Positions 3,674-64,000 are shown, counted from the first letter of the stretch. The stretch is DNA of 64,000 nt from Microgenomates group bacterium GW2011_GWC1_46_15 (GCA_001002285.1 LCLX01000003.1:2560-66559); one strand, 5' to 3'. Numbers and translations are program-made. The notes: a model not told the origin generated them from the sequence alone.

Positions 3674-3728
3674 ATACCAATTTTCCTTTCGTTTGGTGTT
3701 TGTACGATTTGAGTGAGAAAATAAAAAA

Positions 3729-55576: not shown

Positions 55577-55905
55577 GCCGACAATATGTTACAAAGGTAC
55601 GGTTTTACGTACACTCTTTATCACTAAAGAGATCCGACTATATCTTCATCCCCGAAAAGGGATATTTGACGTATAGTCTGTGAGGATTTCCTTCGCTTTC
55701 GCTTAGGATCTTTCCTGCTGATTGTCTTGCGTCAACAATTGACTGGTTTACTATTTTCACTTGCATGCAGATGCGAAACAAGTAAGTAAACATTAACGAG
55801 GGTTTCCAGCATTTAGTCAAATTTATAGTGGTTAAACCACTGTTACATTTTTGAGTCCTACCTATCTTCAAACGTCTATCTGTAACTTAGACAGCAAGGC
55901 CTTAT
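55577..55905 (-). mobile_element. small ORF-less group I intron inserted right after ...ACGTCGTGAGACAGT (I-CreI/I-CeuI-type homing-site region, about E. coli L2593-2610)
   Basis: R element CACAGACTATACGTCAAAT and S element GGATGAAGATATAGTCGGATC. Two short P9-like hairpins follow (CTCTTTAGTGATAAAGAG, GTACGTAAAACCGTAC). The exon resumes TGTCGGCCTCTATCC. Confidence 0.5.
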
Positions 55906-56896: not shown

Positions 56897-57240
56897 CAAA
56901 CAACCTAAAAACTTTCGTTTATAGCCTGACTATACCTTCATCCGCTAAGGGCGGATGTGGGCGTGTTATGGAATATGTAATATAGAGATATACTCCATCC
57001 AGAATTCTTCATTCTGAGTCGATACGGGGTCAAGATACTTTTGTAAAAGTATCCGACTTCCCACGGTGTTGCCATGTTTCATCATATTTCTACGGTATCA
57101 TAAAGACCCGAAGAAAAGTAGAAGATGAAACGAAGGGTTCACCGTTATGAGCCCAAATTCTCTGTTTTGTGCTTGAGTAATCACACACAGAACAGAAACA
57201 GCACCATCCTATTGCTAGAATGGGACCCCGATGTTAATTG
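56897..57240 (-). mobile_element. degenerate ORF-less group I intron copy (deletion derivative of the neighbouring intron) inserted after ...GGTTTGCTACCTC (about E. coli L2449)
   Basis: Contains a 110-nt duplicate of the 5' part of the downstream intron, including a truncated HE start (ATGAAACATGGCAACACCGTGGGAAGTCG = MKHGNTVGS...). It then jumps to an S element GGATGAAGGTATAGTC. A micro-exon GATGTCGGCT follows. Confidence 0.5.
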
Positions 57241-57861
57241 AGGTAGCAAACCGCGCCGTCGCTAGGGACGCTTAGGCGCGATGACTCTGTTATCCCCAGA
57301 GTAGCTTTTATCCGTTAAGCCCGGTACCTTCCACAAAGTACACGAGGATCACTATGACCTGCTTTCGCACCTGCTCGGCCTGTTTGCCTCACAGTCAAGC
57401 ATCCTTATGCCGTTGCACTTCCAGCCCGATTTCCATCCGGGCCAAGGATACCATTGCGCGCTTGCGGTACTCTTTAGCAAGCAACCTCCCCAGTTAAACT
57501 ACCCGCCAGACAGTGTTCCCTTCGCCGTTTGCAGGCGAATTGGGTGAGATATTTTATACGAAACGAGCGGTATTACACTGTTGTATGTACCTTGCGGCAC
57601 ACACTCCCGCCTATCCTAGACAATCCCGAATAAAACATCAGTGCCAAGCTATAGTAAAGCTTCATGGGGTCTTTTTGTCCTACTGCCAGTAGGCCGCATC
57701 TTCACAGCCATTTCAATTTCGCCGAGTAATGGTTCGAGACAGTTGGAGACTCGTTGTTCCTTTCATGCGCGTCGCCAATTAAGCGACAAGGTATTTCGCT
57801 GATTTGATTGACTTATCAATCTTTTTTGTTATAGCTCGTGTTGAGCTAGCGCGGTCATTTC

Positions 57862-58930
57862 TGCCGCTCTCTCATGGTCGCCCATGAGATCAGACTATCC
57901 CTTCACCAAAGAGGTTTGTTGTCATTTATGTACAACGGTAATTCTTTGGCGTTACGCGTATAGTCGTTGAGGATCCGATTCAATCGATCACGTTTGATAC
58001 GATTCTTTTGTAATTGAAAAGGAAAGTCTTCAGAAAATATCCGAAGCAATCGAACAACGTCCGATCGTTTTCCAGTTTCGTATACAAAAAGTTTCTCGTC
58101 TTTACGTTCATATACAAATCCGACTTTGAAGAAGAATCGAAATAATGTAATTATCCCATAATCCTTCATTCCTACTGTAAAGTAGGGTTGATATGTATTG
58201 TTACGTTTTTTCAAACCAACAGAGCCTTCTGCGTCAAATATTCCACATAAGAAGAATCCAAGTTCTTGTCTCGAATATCTTCTTTCATGAAAAGTCATTT
58301 GAGTGACAGAAAGTCCTTCTTTTTTTAATAATTTCAAATTTGCTCGAATATGTTCAATTTCTTCAACCTCACTCATATTTCTACGAGTGCTTTTTCCTTT
58401 TGCAGATAAAATATTCATTGCTTGTTGAAGCAATGAAATTTTAGCGTTTGCAATATCTCCTGCAATAATTGGGTATTGTGAAAAGAAAGAAAGCGCTAAA
58501 GCAACTTTTTTCTTTCCACGCATACTTAAGTTATATCCTCCATGAATGGGTGAAATAACTCCCCTACTATTACATAAACGTGCATTCACTTTTGCTAAAA
58601 GATAAAGGTCTTCATTAGAAACTGTGAGATCTGGACTATATGAAAATCCAGACCCATATGGTCTTGACTGTTTGATAACAGAACAAGACATTTCTCCGGC
58701 GCAAAATCCTGAAATATAAAAATTATCGACTTTACTCGTTTCCTGCTGGTTTTCTGCAGGTATGGCATTGTCAGTTGAAGAAATATTGGGCATCACTTTT
58801 ATAATACCCAAATATTTACCGAATATCAACTAGCCATCCTTCTAAAACACTAAAGATACCATCTTTGTGTTACAGATTTTCCAGCATACAGCGCAATTTT
58901 ACTATGGCAACGTTTTGATACCATAGAACA
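57862..58930 (-). mobile_element. group I intron with LAGLIDADG homing endonuclease ORF, inserted after the ...GTAACTATAAC helix-69 sequence (about E. coli L1917-1920)
   Basis: The 5' exon ends at ...GAAGCCCCGGTGAACGGCAGCAGTAACTATAAC (reverse complement of about 58931-58965). Group I S-element-like GGTGAAGGGATAGTC (reverse complement of 57891-57907) and R-like ACGACTATACGC are present. The 3' boundary is uncertain because the universal GGTCCTAAGGTAGC block is not evident. Confidence 0.55.
57903..58829 (-). CDS. intron-encoded LAGLIDADG homing endonuclease (double-motif)
   Basis: 308 aa. Motifs ...YISGFCAGEMSCS... and ...LCGIFDAEGSVGL.... Located entirely within the 23S insertion. Confidence 0.75.
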   Translation of the reverse strand: MIFGKYLGIIKVMPNISSTDNAIPAENQQETSKVDNFYISGFCAGEMSCSVIKQSRPYGSGFSYSPDLTVSNEDLYLLAKVNARLCNSRGVISPIHGGYNLSMRGKKKVALALSFFSQYPIIAGDIANAKISLLQQAMNILSAKGKSTRRNMSEVEEIEHIRANLKLLKKEGLSVTQMTFHERRYSRQELGFFLCGIFDAEGSVGLKKRNNTYQPYFTVGMKDYGIITLFRFFFKVGFVYERKDEKLFVYETGKRSDVVRLLRIFSEDFPFQLQKNRIKRDRLNRILNDYTRNAKELPLYINDNKPLW

Positions 58931-61103
58931 GTTATAGTTACTGCTGCCGTTCACCGGGGCTTCAATTGAAAGCAGTACCCTTGCGGGTACCACTCTCGCA
59001 GTTAACCTTCCGGCACTGGGCAGGTTTCAGCCCGTATACGTCCTCTTTCGAGTTTGCACGGACCTGTGTTTTTGTTAAACAGTCAGTCTCCAGTCTTTCG
59101 CTGCGCCTCTCCTTGCGGAGAGAAGGGCATATACCAAGGGTACGCCCAGCTGTTTTGCCGAATTCCTTAAACCATTGTCTCTCGTTCTCCTTAGCCTTCT
59201 CGGCCAGTTCACCTGTGTCGGTTATCGGTACGATTTAATAACACTCTGCTTGCGAAGCTTTTCTAGGAACCTGAAGTCCTGCGTCTTGCCCGTTCCTTGC
59301 GGAACAGACTCCACATCACAATTCGATTAAACATATCTGCGGGTTTGCCAACAGACATTATCTCGTTGCTTGTGCGGCTCTATCTTCGACAGAGCGCACG
59401 CAGTATCCAAATCCGTCCCTCCCCAAGTCATAACGATTGTTATCAAGGACCAGAATATCAACTGGTTATCCATCAGCTACGCCATTCGGCCTCGCCTAAG
59501 GGTCGCCTTACCCGCACACGACAAACGTGGGTGCGGAAACCTTGAACATTCGGAGATGAAGATTCTCACTTCATGTACGCTACTCATACCGGCATTCGCA
59601 CTTCCGGTCGCTCCAGCAGATCGATTTCTCGCCGCCTTCACAGCACCCGGAACGCTCCCCTACCACTCACATAATTTCTTACGAAAATATATAAATCTTT
59701 GTCTTCGGTATATTCCTTAAGCCTCGATACGTTTTCGACGCCCTGATCCTCGGCTAGTGAGCTGTTACGCTTTCTTTCAAGGATGGCTGCTTCTGAGCCG
59801 ACCTCCTAGGTGTTTGGGGACCAAGACTATCTTTCCCACTGAGGAATATTTAGAGACCTTAGACGAAAGTCTGGGATGTTTCCCTCTCGCCTGGCGAACT
59901 TAGCTCCGCCATACTGAGTCCCATGCACGAACTGACGGTATTCGGAGTTTGGTTAAATTTTTGATCTTGCGACCAAAAAATTCATCCAGTACTCTACCCC
60001 CATCAGCCTAATCATGAGCCTATACCTAAATATATTTCGGGGAGAACCAGCTATCTCCAGGTTCGATAGGCATATAACCTCTACCCACAATTCATCCGAC
60101 AGACTTGCAACTCTGAACGGTTCGGTCCTCCCGCACGTTTTACCGTACGTTCAACCTGATCATGGGTAGCTCACCTGGTTTCGGGTCTATAGTGTGTTCC
60201 TTGGCGCCCTATTCAGGCTCGCTTTCACTGCGCGTCCGCCGTTTCAACGGCTTACACTTGGAACAGACCATAACTCGCCGGTTCATTCTTCAATAGGCAC
60301 GACATCATCCTTGCGGACTCTGTCTGCTTGTTAGCAGATAGTTTCAGTTTCTATTTCACGGGGTCTTCGACCCTTCTTTTCACCTTTCCCTCACGGTACT
60401 CGTTCGCTATCGGTCAACACATGTATTTAGCCTTGGAGCGTGGTCGCCCCAGATTCTTCCCGGAGTTTGCCGTCTCCGAAAGTACTTAGGAAATCCCTAT
60501 GGTGCATCTGTTTTTCATATACACGACTGTCACGTTCTTTGGTCGCTCATTCCATAGCGTTCTATTCAACAGATACAATCCAATATTGGGCTCCTGCAAC
60601 CCCCATCTTACGATGGGTTTAGGCTGTTCCCTTTTCGCTCGTCGCTTACTCAGGGAATCTCTTTCGATGTCTTTTCCAGCGCGTACTTAGATATTTCAGT
60701 TCTGCGCGTACCCTTCCGTGACAAAAGCCACGGATGACCCAGAATAACCTGGGCCGGGTTTCCCCATTCGGACACCACCGGATCAAAGCTTCTTGACAGC
60801 TCCCCGGCGAGTTTCGCCGTCTAGTGCGTCCTTCTTCGGCATGTGTTGCCAAGGCATCCACTATCTGCATGAGTTCACATACATTACTGTATACTCTTGC
60901 GTTTTCAAAATTTTTGAAAATACAACCTACTGTTATTTTTTACAATAACAGCGTTGCAGCATTGATGAACGCATACAAAAGTATGCGCCCTTCCGCAGTG
61001 TTCTTCCCTTACGGGATGAAACGCGGTTTGCCGCAACATTCATTCTCTTCACTTGTTAAGGAGCGAATCCGTTGATCGGAGAAGAGTCTAAGCGTTTAAC
61101 GGC

Positions 61104-61649: not shown

Positions 61650-62255
61650 CTAATACCTCTGGCCAGCTGGCTTTGGAACAAACGGCTTCATCTGAGCAAT
61701 ATCTTCGGGCTTGTGTTTAAAGAGGTACAAGATCTTATCGAGATAATTCCCCAAATCTTTGTAGTAGTACACGTGTTCCAGATCAAGATCGTCATTCGTG
61801 TACACGTTTTCGCGCGTTTGTTCGTGCGTGTGCACATATGTAGAACCGGCATGAACAACCACTGTTCCAATCATCAACATTTTCCACAATGCGTTGCGCG
61901 GAAATGTTTTGATTTTCACTGCGTCATCCCAGTTGAGCGCGCGCGAGTTTGTTGCAAACGGGGTTGCCGCTTCAAACCGCACAATCCGGCGGTCGGTAAT
62001 ATACGCTCTGCTTTTTTTGAACATCAGCACACTCGCCCATGTTCCAAACACCGCGATTAACGATCCAAGAAAAAGACCGATAAACGGTAAACCTTTCATC
62101 ACGCTTGTCAAAAATAAAAAGCTTAAAAATATCGCGAGCGACAAAAGATAGATTTTTGCTAATCCCGTATAAAGCGCATAGATATGCGGCTCAACAATGT
62201 AAAGCACGCGCTCGTCTGTTTGCTGTCCGGGAAAATAATGGCTTTCCATAGGCAT
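61650..62255 (-). CDS. hypothetical membrane protein (2 TM + cytoplasmic beta-rich domain, bacterial PH-like?)
   Basis: 201 aa. Two adjacent TM helices followed by a ...YITDRRIVRFE... segment reminiscent of bPH_2/YdbT-type domains. Weak. Confidence 0.35.
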   Translation of the reverse strand: MPMESHYFPGQQTDERVLYIVEPHIYALYTGLAKIYLLSLAIFLSFLFLTSVMKGLPFIGLFLGSLIAVFGTWASVLMFKKSRAYITDRRIVRFEAATPFATNSRALNWDDAVKIKTFPRNALWKMLMIGTVVVHAGSTYVHTHEQTRENVYTNDDLDLEHVYYYKDLGNYLDKILYLFKHKPEDIAQMKPFVPKPAGQRY

Positions 62256-62272
62256 AGTGTATCATATAGTGT

Positions 62273-62794
62273 ATGGCAACCAGATATGCTCTCGTCGTTA
62301 TCATCCCAGATGAAATCCGCACCTCATTAGATGAAGCATACTTTAAAGTTTCTGGAAAACATCTCACGATAGCACACGCGCACATCACGATTCTTCCGCC
62401 GTTTTTTCTTGCACATATTGATGAGGTTGAACTCACACAAAAACTCGCATCGCTGCATATTCAACCATTCACCGCACACAATGAAACGTTTGGCGTGTTT
62501 CATCAGCAATCTGATATTGTGTATGTTTCTATTGAACCATTCGATGCATTTTCTGTGATATACGAACAGGCGCTTACTCTGTTGGAAGGGGTTATTACGT
62601 TTGATGTGGAACCATACGCGGATAAAAATCTGCCCCCGCTGCTTCCCCATCTTTCACTTGATTATCATGCAGAAAACGCGAAAGATAGTGTAGAAAAACT
62701 GAATGGGTACCATGTATCGCTCACATTTTCTGTTCAATCACTCGTCATATTGAAAGAAGTTGATGGCGTGTGGAGTCCTGTCACAACGATGTAG
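62273..62794 (+). CDS. 2H phosphoesterase superfamily protein (LigT / 2'-5' RNA ligase-like)
   Basis: 173 aa with two H-x-[TS]-x motifs (HLTIAH..., HLSLDY) at the spacing typical of LigT-like 2H enzymes. Confidence 0.5.
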   Translation: MATRYALVVIIPDEIRTSLDEAYFKVSGKHLTIAHAHITILPPFFLAHIDEVELTQKLASLHIQPFTAHNETFGVFHQQSDIVYVSIEPFDAFSVIYEQALTLLEGVITFDVEPYADKNLPPLLPHLSLDYHAENAKDSVEKLNGYHVSLTFSVQSLVILKEVDGVWSPVTTM

Positions 62795-62839
62795 TTTGAA
62801 ACAACTGTGGGCTCTTTACGAAAAAATACGGACTGATTT

Positions 62840-63679
62840 TCAAAGGTAGCGCGGCGAGTGCCCCCACCCACTCGCCGCGCCATCTTCACGCTCGGCTTTC
62901 GGCCTTGAATTTTTGTATATTCGAGTTGATCTTGGCAATCCTATGGCTAAAGAATATACCTTAGCTTTTGTGTTTGACACAATATCGTCAGGATGTTCCA
63001 GATACCATTTTACCCTACTAACATGAGTCCTGGGAGCTATATAGGATAACTGTGATCCCTCGTTTCTTCGTTCAGCCTCCTGCCGAATACCTTTCGCTAT
63101 TAATAATCTACGAGCATCTTCCATGTCAATTATAAATTTTTCAAATTTTTTTCTCTCGAGATCAAATGCCCCAATTCTAAGCACCTCTTGTATATTCATC
63201 CCTACTCCATTAAGCATGCTACAAAATGCCAAAAAACTTCCAAACTTGCCGGGGTCAACACTTATAAGTAATGGGCTTAGAGCAAATCTTAAACCTCCAT
63301 GGTAAATAGAATACATTGGGCCATTAGCAATGTCTGATACTGCAATTTCTCGTCCATATTTAGTAGCTAGTCCACTTACCTTGTTAAAAAACGAATTTAG
63401 GCCTTTTGCCTCTCCAGCATCTTTTGCCAATTTCCCCCAAATGGGGTTGTTATACACACTAGATTCCAATTCATAAGGAAAATATTCAACAAACACTAAT
63501 GAACTCTTTTGTATTTCACCCTCAATAGCTTGCCATGGATCTACTTCAGGCATTAGTTCTGGTTGATGATCACAGGAAACAAGGCTGATGGTCACTCCGT
63601 TTATATTTAGCCTTTCGATTTGAAGAGCATTTGGATCATTTACTAATTCTTGAATTTGGACGCCTGCTGATAATTCCAT
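62840..63679 (-). CDS. hypothetical protein (possible TraB/TIKI-like fold) encoded inside an inverted-repeat-flanked segment
   Basis: 279 aa, no confident family. The last about 18 codons are read from the left terminal inverted repeat, so the true stop may be earlier or the frame fortuitous. Confidence 0.35.
   Translation of the reverse strand: MELSAGVQIQELVNDPNALQIERLNINGVTISLVSCDHQPELMPEVDPWQAIEGEIQKSSLVFVEYFPYELESSVYNNPIWGKLAKDAGEAKGLNSFFNKVSGLATKYGREIAVSDIANGPMYSIYHGGLRFALSPLLISVDPGKFGSFLAFCSMLNGVGMNIQEVLRIGAFDLERKKFEKFIIDMEDARRLLIAKGIRQEAERRNEGSQLSYIAPRTHVSRVKWYLEHPDDIVSNTKAKVYSLAIGLPRSTRIYKNSRPKAEREDGAASGWGHSPRYL
62850..62904. repeat. 55-bp terminal inverted repeat (left copy) containing an 11-bp-stem GC hairpin. 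Its perfect partner is at 63945..window end
   Basis: CGCGGCGAGTGCCCCCACCCACTCGCCGCGCCATCTTCACGCTCGGCTTTCGGCC. Reverse complement found exactly at 63945-64000 (GGCCGAAAGCCGAGCGTGAAGATGGCGCGGCGAGTGGGTGGGGGCACTCGCCGCG). Confidence 0.85.
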
Positions 63680-63944
63680 AAGATTTAGAAATTCAGATTT
63701 TCTTTCTAAATTATACTGTATTCAAAGTTTCATTTCTCCCTTGTTTCATAATTTAAGTTTTGATATAGTTCTTGTTGGAACCAACATTTAGGAATTGCTT
63801 TTTTGATGGCGCAATCGGACAACGAGAAGCAATTCTTAGTTGGTTCCACCGGTTGCGCCTTTAAAGTTCTAAGATCGCTCTTTTAAAATTTTTACGTTTT
63901 TCTTTGTTCCGCCTTTGGCGGAATGTCCGAACCGACTTTTTGCG

Positions 63945-64000
63945 AGGCCGAAAGCCGAGCGTGAAGATGGCGCGGCGAGTGGGTGGGGGCACTCGCCGCG
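63945..64000. repeat. 55-bp terminal inverted repeat (right copy, may extend beyond the window)
   Basis: Exact reverse complement of 62850-62904. Confidence 0.85.

Follow-up and report, generated by a model that had tools for sequence, protein, structure and literature searches.

The 64,000-nucleotide stretch of DNA analysed here (hereafter the window; LCLX01000003.1:2560-66559 in GCA_001002285.1, Microgenomates group bacterium GW2011_GWC1_46_15) ends in a perfect inverted repeat (IR) whose two arms enclose a single gene and a leader. A repeat search of the window places the arms at 62850-62905 and 63945-64000, where they are 56 nucleotides (nt) long and 100% complementary, in agreement with an initial annotation that had described a perfect repeat of 55 bp. 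As that annotation also noticed, each arm carries a GC hairpin with an 11-bp stem, here closed by an 8-nt loop (62850-62879 and 63971-64000), and between the arms lie a minus-strand open reading frame (ORF) at 62840..63679, encoding 279 amino acids (aa), and an AT-rich leader of 262 nt. Both halves of the repeat are confined to these two places within the 64-kb window, where shuffled sequences are expected to give 0 matches. The arms belong to a mobile element of about 2.97 kb that encodes a large serine recombinase (LSR) and occupies the 3′ end of a tRNA-Ile gene. This element appears to be a serine-integrase mobile element with an unusual cassette architecture of two IR pairs and with an apparently new structured leader.

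An exact search with the 56-mer matched a contig of Candidatus Yonathbacteria UBA12043, and comparison with a 147-kb contig of the same organism (L002) reveals that the full IR measures 103 nt (L002 5636-5738 and 6862-6964). The 56-nt repeat of the window is the inner part of this arm pair, called B and B′. Because the IR in L002 is 103 nt long, the true left arm in the window is 62806-62905. This distal arm, B′, which also forms the terminus of the element and resembles an attR site, begins with an outer TGTGGG (62806-62811), the reverse complement of a CCCACA core common to the 3′ end of tRNA-Ile. The core is followed by a very conserved segment termed ext (62812-62849), the GC hairpin (62850..62879, with stem strands at 62850-62860 and 62869-62879 and the loop CCCCCACC) and the inner part of the arm (62880-62905). 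The recombinase-proximal arm, B (63942..64000, hairpin 63971-64000), is cut by the end of the window. The suspicion that this right copy continues further is borne out by L002, in which arm B runs 44 nt past position 64000 to a central TGTGGG core, which is followed by another arm, A′, and then by the LSR gene.

The extension of the ORF into the repeat has a local cause. Read as its reverse complement, the window matches L002 at 100% identity except that 89 nt (L002 6776-6864) are missing at the junction 62905..62906, and these nucleotides are kept in nine of nine other assemblies of the locus. The deletion adjoins the inner edge of the arm, with a microhomology of just 1 nt. It takes away the end of the gene (the last 16 codons and the stop codon), the flank on that side and 3 nt at the inner end of the arm. 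The ORF reads into the repeat because this deletion fuses it to the arm. Thus, the earlier observation that about 18 terminal codons are drawn from the repeat holds for the window but does not describe the native state, in which the gene encodes 274 aa and stops 36 nt short of the arm. The deletion could be either a real variant or an assembly error.

In L002, the order of features is 16S rRNA, tRNA-Ile, A-LSR-A′, B-leader-274-aa gene-B′, a reverse-strand gene for a 2′-5′ RNA ligase, a gene for a 201-aa protein, tRNA-Ala and 23S rRNA. The element occupies the 16S-23S spacer of a Candidatus Yonathbacteria genome, adjoining the 3′ end of tRNA-Ile, and reads tRNA-Ile / CCCACA / arm A - LSR (reverse strand) - arm A′ / TGTGGG / arm B - leader - cargo - arm B′ / CCCACA / host flank. 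It therefore contains two adjacent IR pairs, with A and A′ (95 nt, 97% identical in L002) surrounding the recombinase gene and B and B′ (103 nt, perfect) surrounding the cargo cassette.

The ends of the element are exact. In two relatives (L139 and L140) the site is empty, and the stop codon of the RNA ligase gene is followed by 11 nt, TGTGGG and the tRNA-Ile 3′ end. In the window, the same stop codon is followed by the same 11 nt, TGTGGG and arm B′, and at the other end of the element tRNA-Ile…CCCACA directly precedes arm A. The hexamer CCCACA, found once in the empty site (an attB written tRNA-Ile…GTGACCCACAGGTGTTCC), is found twice in direct orientation around the element of roughly 2.97 kb. 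Because relatives show the empty site, the element is an insertion with exact boundaries. A third copy of the hexamer, in inverted orientation, occupies the A′/B junction and is common to both arms, and the junction of an excised circle is predicted to read B′…AAAGAGCCCACAAAAATGGAG in direct context. The hexamers that flank the cassette by itself (TGTGGG and CCCACA) are inverted and belong to the repeat. Extension past position 64000, a check proposed in the initial annotation, located the end of the IR; a direct repeat surrounds the whole element, and no direct target-site duplication surrounds the cassette alone.

The 2′-5′ RNA ligase-family gene (62273..62794, plus strand; PF13563) has its stop codon 11 nt from the end of the element. 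Its orthologs in the relatives with empty sites (93% and 81% identity in L139 and L140, respectively) adjoin tRNA-Ile with no element between, and the gene is part of the target site, outside the element.

The LSR, encoded just outside the window end within its own IR of roughly 95 nt, is a 507-aa protein with Resolvase (PF00239, residues 5-149), Recombinase (PF07508, 173-260) and Zn-ribbon (PF13408, 272-328) domains and with an N terminus, YCRKSTDE, that carries a catalytic-type Ser. It is weakly and distantly similar to SprA, XisF and CcrB, and homologs with 80-89% identity occur in genomes labelled as Collier-, Woese-, Microgenomates- and Parcubacteria. The ORF ends inside arm A, which encodes its last 30 or so codons. 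Arms A and A′ (L002 4009-4056 and 5575-5622) could each form two mutually exclusive hairpins that use a common strand, GCGCTCGCCGCG, in either a 7-bp stem with the upstream CGGCGAG or a 12-bp stem with the downstream CGCGGCGAGCGC, a layout like that of an attenuator. In sibling elements, some LSR genes are split by inserts of about 1.3 kb (L070, L105 and L110, inner length 2685) or 0.55 kb (L062 and L076, inner length 2000).

The element is one of many. A single metagenome scan with 22 nt of the hairpin, which is the basis of the feature map and of the IR census, recovered at least 119 related loci; the counts of loci, arms and cargo genes that follow are those among the matches listed. Cassette IR pairs number 43, their arms measuring roughly 100-125 nt and enclosing 986-3367 nt, and a further 32 IR pairs surround recombinase modules. 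The target is most often tRNA-Ile, and tRNA-Ser, tRNA-Val, tRNA-Ala and tRNA-Lys are also used. For example, elements at tRNA-Val (L016) and tRNA-Lys (L018) have the same backbone, at 82-84% nucleotide identity between leader and tRNA across B′, A, the LSR and A′, and carry different cargo. The element thus belongs to a large family residing at several tRNA genes across bacteria of the Candidate Phyla Radiation (CPR), and most members lie outside rRNA operons. A literature search returned no description of this family. The hairpin pattern had no match among IMG/VR viral contigs, and a phage origin was rejected on this ground.

In contrast to the backbone, the cargo is hypervariable. The 58 cassette ORFs fall into 41 clusters, such that nearly every non-redundant element carries a different gene, and L002 and L016 share 83% nucleotide identity over leader, arms and recombinase although their cargo differs. 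The usual cargo is one gene that reads away from the recombinase-proximal arm; L016, with a perfect 102-nt cassette IR, encloses two unrelated genes. Most cargo proteins have no Pfam match, the exceptions being a tetratricopeptide repeat (TPR) protein, an S-adenosylmethionine (SAM) methyltransferase, serine hydrolases and an IS630-type transposase, and many look membrane-anchored or secreted. The otherwise unrelated cargo proteins of seven elements (L064, L087, L121, L134, L076, L079 and L101) begin with MENQINxGDQNxQQxGQNP followed by a transmembrane helix, and this common N terminus hints at a signal for the export or anchoring of cassette-encoded surface proteins.

The 274-aa protein of the present cassette matches no Pfam or NCBIfam family, and an AlphaFold2 model of it (predicted local distance difference test score 72) matches no PDB fold at E<0.001. 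At least 20 contigs, from samples that include Rifle groundwater, encode its intact form, and homologs with 43-80% identity occur in other genomes without any IR. A role for the enclosed gene as a transposase was rejected, given that none of the Pfam, NCBIfam and PDB-fold comparisons supports it and that its homologs elsewhere lack the repeat.

The arms share a common build, in which a highly conserved outer segment of about 45 nt ends in the core and is followed by the GC hairpin and an inner segment of about 25 nt. In nearly all of some 150 arms, the outer end of B′ reads …CAGTCCG[AT]ATTTTTTCGTAAAGAG[TC]CCAC, and the conserved terminus is also given as …TTTTTTCGTAAAGAG[TC]CCAC. Beyond the B′ core lies either arm A, at the central junction, or unrelated flank, at the distal junction. 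The junctions with tRNA genes read …CCAC|A[GA]WWWTGG. Among elements of the tRNA-Ser subfamily, CCGC replaces this core at both the tRNA end and the B′ end, and for this reason the core can be said to track the target, as the cores of attP and attB do.

Identity averages 98.9% for the two arms of one element and 83.6% for arms of different elements. For 30 of the 32 elements compared, the nearest relative of an arm is its own partner. Because identity within elements exceeds that between elements, the arms undergo concerted evolution rather than descending from a common ancient duplication. A one-off, recent hairpin-mediated duplication, as the initial annotation suggested, is rejected because the arms evolve in concert and the IR architecture recurs in 43 loci. 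Another proposal, drawn from the remnant L012, held that the distal arm is ancestral and the proximal arm a local duplicate; it was dropped because both arms are part of the backbone in many elements. Furthermore, neither the hairpin nor the inner part nor the outer segment has additional copies in the 64-kb window, and a dispersed repeat similar to repetitive extragenic palindromic (REP) sequences was rejected accordingly.

The places where homology between elements breaks off are also informative. Stretches at least 95% identical between loci stop at cores or inside arms. The same cassette can adjoin arm A at one locus and a different flank at the other (L044/L115 and L111/L137), one cassette is found at two sites (L079/L089), and the same recombinase module lies beside tRNA-Ala in one locus and beside another cassette in the other (L070, L110 and L105). 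Deletions from hairpin to hairpin have dropped the recombinase or the central junction (L052 and L066 relative to L032; L100 relative to L051), and L012, which carries the 274-aa gene, is a remnant without a recombinase comparable to those in L052 and L100. Other loci (L050, L081 and L027) hold arrays of several cassettes. Within these arrays (L050 near 10222, and also L027 and L081), an arm's outer core (…GAGTCCAC) runs straight into the hairpin loop of the arm that follows (CCCCCAC|C CACTCGC), which suggests that the loop, itself containing CCAC, may act as a secondary crossover site.

The leader (63680..63941, minus strand) is also part of the backbone common to elements with unrelated cargo, with BLAST matches at 70-88% identity in about 45 loci. 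Within it, an alignment of 29 distinct sequences delineates a structured motif of approximately 85 nt (63777..63859, minus strand, which is the cargo sense). In helix P1, GGCGCAA.CGG pairs with CCG.TTGCGCC. A bipartite helix of 16-17 bp (P2/P3) has its 5′ strand within the P1 loop and its 3′ strand past an A6 linker (A6-7), which gives the motif a pseudoknot topology, and this helix competes with a local hairpin.

Several comparisons point to conserved structure in this motif. Across the 29 sequences, 92.7% of cells are paired, compared with 76.6% in shuffles, and 21 of 26 pairs have changes on both sides. The covariation score is 0.411 versus 0.143, with 0 of 500 shuffles reaching the observed value, and controls in which the pairing is slid collapse. 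Furthermore, a sequence's own partner gives a better duplex energy than foreign partners, for P1 in 25 of 29 cases and for P2/P3 in 23 of 29. The motif is a candidate new structured RNA and may act from either strand: an invariant C.A in P1 in the cargo sense corresponds to G.U on the opposite strand, but about 15 G.U cells appear in P3 when it is read in the cargo sense. A TATAyC box lies 8 nt downstream of the motif. Rfam holds no family that matches the leader at its gathering threshold or at E<=1, apart from spurious matches to miRNA hairpins.

Orientation of the cassette is strongly biased. In roughly 35 of the loci listed, the leader lies beside the recombinase-proximal arm. However, one pair of siblings in two different metagenomes (L085 and L128) carries an entire 1838-nt cassette in opposite orientations, with 100% identity that includes the recombinase flank and the arm. 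The proposal in the initial annotation that the segment is invertible thus finds limited support, from this one sibling element and not from the locus itself. Further candidate flips were rejected; L079 versus L089 and L104 represent cassette relocations or decayed arms, with no clean inversion.

The arms are the termini of the cargo module, and the distal arm is at the same time the end of the element. We consider it probable, although far from certain, that they serve as the matching ends of an invertible or exchangeable cargo module within a small LSR-encoding integrative element. We infer a role for the LSR in recombination at these sites, for which the core that changes with the target tRNA and the homology breakpoints at cores are indirect evidence. 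In the mechanism we propose, the LSR would recombine at CCAC(A) cores, and the outer pair of cores in direct orientation would act as attL and attR when the whole element integrates or is excised. The central junction, B′-core-A, would be an inverted copy of the attP that excision should recreate. Because of this inverted copy, each module would be bounded by inverted sites and could flip with all junctions regenerated. Recombination in both arms would also permit replacement of a cassette in either orientation, and recombination between arms, by inversion or gene conversion, would keep them identical. The outward-facing hairpins would probably insulate transcription as well.

Several observations weigh against this proposal. 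Characterised LSRs use sites of about 40-50 bp and recombine attP with attB, or attL with attR when a directionality factor is present, and we know of no precedent for inversion between an attP-like site and an attL- or attR-like site. None of ten assemblies of the present locus is inverted, and an all-against-all search that included about nine multiply-assembled elements yielded the single flip pair described above. One member of this pair, L085, ends inside its second arm, such that assembler mis-traversal of a 102-nt IR is a possible explanation. No recombinase module among the loci listed is flipped relative to the tRNA, with its 5′ end facing the tRNA gene. No circular form of the element was observed among the loci examined, nor was an excised circle junction found among the loci compared. 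Two loci considered as excised circles (L091 and L105) were rejected, as self-comparison shows no circular permutation and the recombinase lies between two different cassettes. Moreover, RecA-type recombination between repeats of 100 nt could suffice to account for the flips as well as for the concerted evolution of the arms.

A more far-reaching version of the exchangeable-module proposal can be entertained tentatively. The element may be a hitherto undescribed CPR counterpart of the integron built on a serine recombinase, wherein a mobile, tRNA-targeted platform uses its LSR to flip single-gene cassettes and exchange them in either orientation, the cassettes carrying identical inverted att-type arms and a conserved pseudoknotted RNA leader. 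The likeness to integron cassettes, which are governed by IntI, attI and attC, lies in diverse single-ORF cassettes, a site-specific recombinase, palindromic hairpins at the boundaries and the formation of arrays. However, integrons rely on a tyrosine recombinase and one attC per cassette, whereas the elements described here have a serine-type enzyme and two inverted arms per cassette, their cassettes bring their own conserved structured leader, and the platform is itself mobile and directed to tRNA genes. If this integron-like idea were true, the LSR would catalyse cassette exchange and inversion between attP-like and attL/attR-like sites, reactions that to our knowledge no characterised LSR performs.

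Another possibility, which we regard as unlikely, is that the cassette is a programmed phase-variation switch in the style of Hin, Gin, Pin or fimS, which by inverting would switch the cargo on and off, or else the recombinase by way of a leader promoter. The perfect IRs and the sibling element seen in both orientations speak for such a switch, the recombinase ORF ends in arm A and so stays intact either way round, and many cargo proteins appear membrane-anchored or secreted. Nevertheless, one flipped locus stands against about 35 in the same orientation, with no flip among the 10 assemblies of this locus, and the recombinase is a large enzyme and not a small invertase. Because the cassette has its own leader, inversion need not alter expression of the cargo.

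The hairpins invite a further alternative, in which the arms are mainly outward-facing terminators or insulators whose IR symmetry and mutual identity result from gene conversion. A transcript that leaves the cassette would meet the GC hairpin and then a U-rich tail (CUACCUUUGAAAAUC…UAUUUUUUCG), which would shield the tRNA, the rRNA operon and the recombinase. Consistent with this idea, the hairpin stem shows a compensatory change from G:C to T:A in a strain variant of the locus (L009) and across the family, and such changes preserve the stem within one arm. The tail following the hairpin is U-rich in the outward direction only, homologous units of hairpin and tail follow genes in the recombinase-less relative L012, and the element itself is located inside an rRNA operon. 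On the other hand, the hairpins do not score as canonical intrinsic terminators, with four T residues among the first 8 nt past the stem. Conservation along the arm is highest outside the hairpin, in the 45-nt outer segment with its tRNA-matching core, which termination leaves unexplained, and homology breakpoints are located exactly at cores. We judge termination unlikely to be the main role of the arms, and it is compatible with the cargo-module proposal as a second function.

Two other accounts are highly improbable. The first, also raised by the initial annotation, is that the 1.15-kb segment is an autonomous transposon resembling an insertion sequence (IS) or a miniature inverted-repeat transposable element (MITE), and that its gene encodes a new transposase. 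In favour of such a unit, the segment has one ORF with no assigned function between long and perfect terminal IRs, and mobility was correctly foreseen, but the enclosed gene is cargo, with more than 30 unrelated genes occupying the same frame across the family, and the recombinase sits outside the window. Indeed, sibling elements hold unrelated genes at this position (the 41 clusters noted above), the enclosed genes are not transposases, homologs of the cargo occur without IRs, and 64 kb of sequence contain only the two copies of the arm. Moreover, the direct repeat flanks the whole element and not the cassette, and the empty site lacks all 2.97 kb, LSR included.

The second such account is that the IR forms a double-stranded stem in the pre-rRNA, from which RNase III would excise the gene inserted in the 16S-23S spacer. 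This notion fits a locus that lies in an rRNA operon, flanked by tRNA-Ile and tRNA-Ala, with its cargo gene in the same direction as the rRNAs, but most family members reside outside rRNA operons, and the compensatory changes seen in L009 keep the local hairpin within one arm but would break pairing between arms. Finally, that the repeat is an assembly artefact (a fold-back at the contig end, which the initial annotation named as a refutation, or a palindromic mis-join) can be dismissed almost entirely, since arms and unique outer flanks are reproduced by different assemblers and samples (L002, L004, L005, L006 and L001/L008), several independent assemblies cross both arms into unique sequence, and the same architecture exists at 43 other loci among the matches listed, even though in the window the right arm touches the end and a deletion found only there adjoins the left arm.

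The proposal of an exchangeable cargo module in an LSR-encoding element can be placed among known systems. Elements that encode LSRs (those of the phiC31, Bxb1 and SPbeta SprA integrases, SCCmec with CcrAB and the Anabaena fdxN element with XisF) have in common with the present family a recombinase of about 500 aa with the same domains, a precise site that is empty in relatives and a short direct core common to the target. The present elements differ in having two adjacent IR pairs of roughly 100 nt, perfect or near-perfect, and an internal inverted predicted attP, and in being tiny, with one cargo gene and with hypervariable cargo in a conserved frame. In the literature searched, we found no description of these features (double IR pairs, an internal inverted attP and a tiny, single-gene hypervariable cargo) for LSR elements.

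Serine invertases (Hin/hix, Gin/gix, Cin, Pin and PinQ) likewise place a serine recombinase beside an IR-bounded segment, and one sibling of the present element was found in both orientations. However, those enzymes are small (about 190 aa, with a C-terminal helix-turn-helix) and act on sites of about 26 bp with a central crossover and an enhancer, whereas the present mobile unit as a whole combines a 507-aa LSR with repeats of 100-125 nt that have their core outermost in each arm.

The nearest analogue in lifestyle is provided by the tycheposons of Prochlorococcus, small cargo elements that integrate on the 3′ side of particular tRNA genes, stack at one site and decay (bioRxiv 10.1101/2020.12.28.424599). 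Both groups comprise cargo elements at the 3′ side of tRNA genes together with remnants, represented here by L012, L052 and L100. Tycheposons differ in that they mostly use tyrosine recombinases and direct repeats of partial tRNA sequence, and no IR-bounded modules have been described for them. The likeness to the yeast 2-micron plasmid, in which FLP acts on FRT sites within 599-bp IRs, is geometric only, FLP being a tyrosine recombinase. If excised, the present element would similarly form a circle of two unique segments and two inverted junctions of about 200 nt (A′-core-B and B′-core-A), with the recombinase in one segment.

These elements are of interest for several reasons. The CPR (Patescibacteria) makes up a large share of bacterial diversity, and its members have tiny genomes with few described mobile elements. 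The family is compact and abundant in groundwater metagenomes, with each cassette bearing one highly variable gene whose product often looks surface-exposed or secreted. Its double-IR layout with an internal inverted predicted attP departs from the textbook rules for large serine integrases and could reveal new reactivity in a class of enzymes heavily used in genome engineering. Direct biochemical tests are possible with the exact attB, attL and attR sequences and the predicted attP defined here.

The rRNA operon that hosts the element has further features. In the window, a LAGLIDADG ORF lies in the 23S rRNA gene, and a group I intron, a 5S gene and tRNA-Ala are also present. The spacer (window 61650-62794; L002 3922-8418) natively holds two protein genes between tRNA-Ile and tRNA-Ala in this lineage, encoding the reverse-strand 2′-5′ RNA ligase-family protein and the 201-aa predicted membrane protein, and both are also found in the element-free relatives L139 and L140. 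The 23S rRNA gene (57168-60883) is about 790 nt longer than the model and contains a 308-aa LAGLIDADG-type ORF at 57903-58829. A separate group I intron match at 55614-55898 falls between the 23S match and 5S, outside the region covered by the 23S model. Past the window end, the 16S gene (L002 415-3720) carries a LAGLIDADG ORF at 1290-2132. The Rfam match to 16S stops at L002 2833, while the anti-Shine-Dalgarno end, GGATCACCTCCTTTCTA, lies near 3705, and this offset implies an extra insertion of about 870 nt that includes a match resembling group II intron domains D1-D4 at L002 3107-3193.

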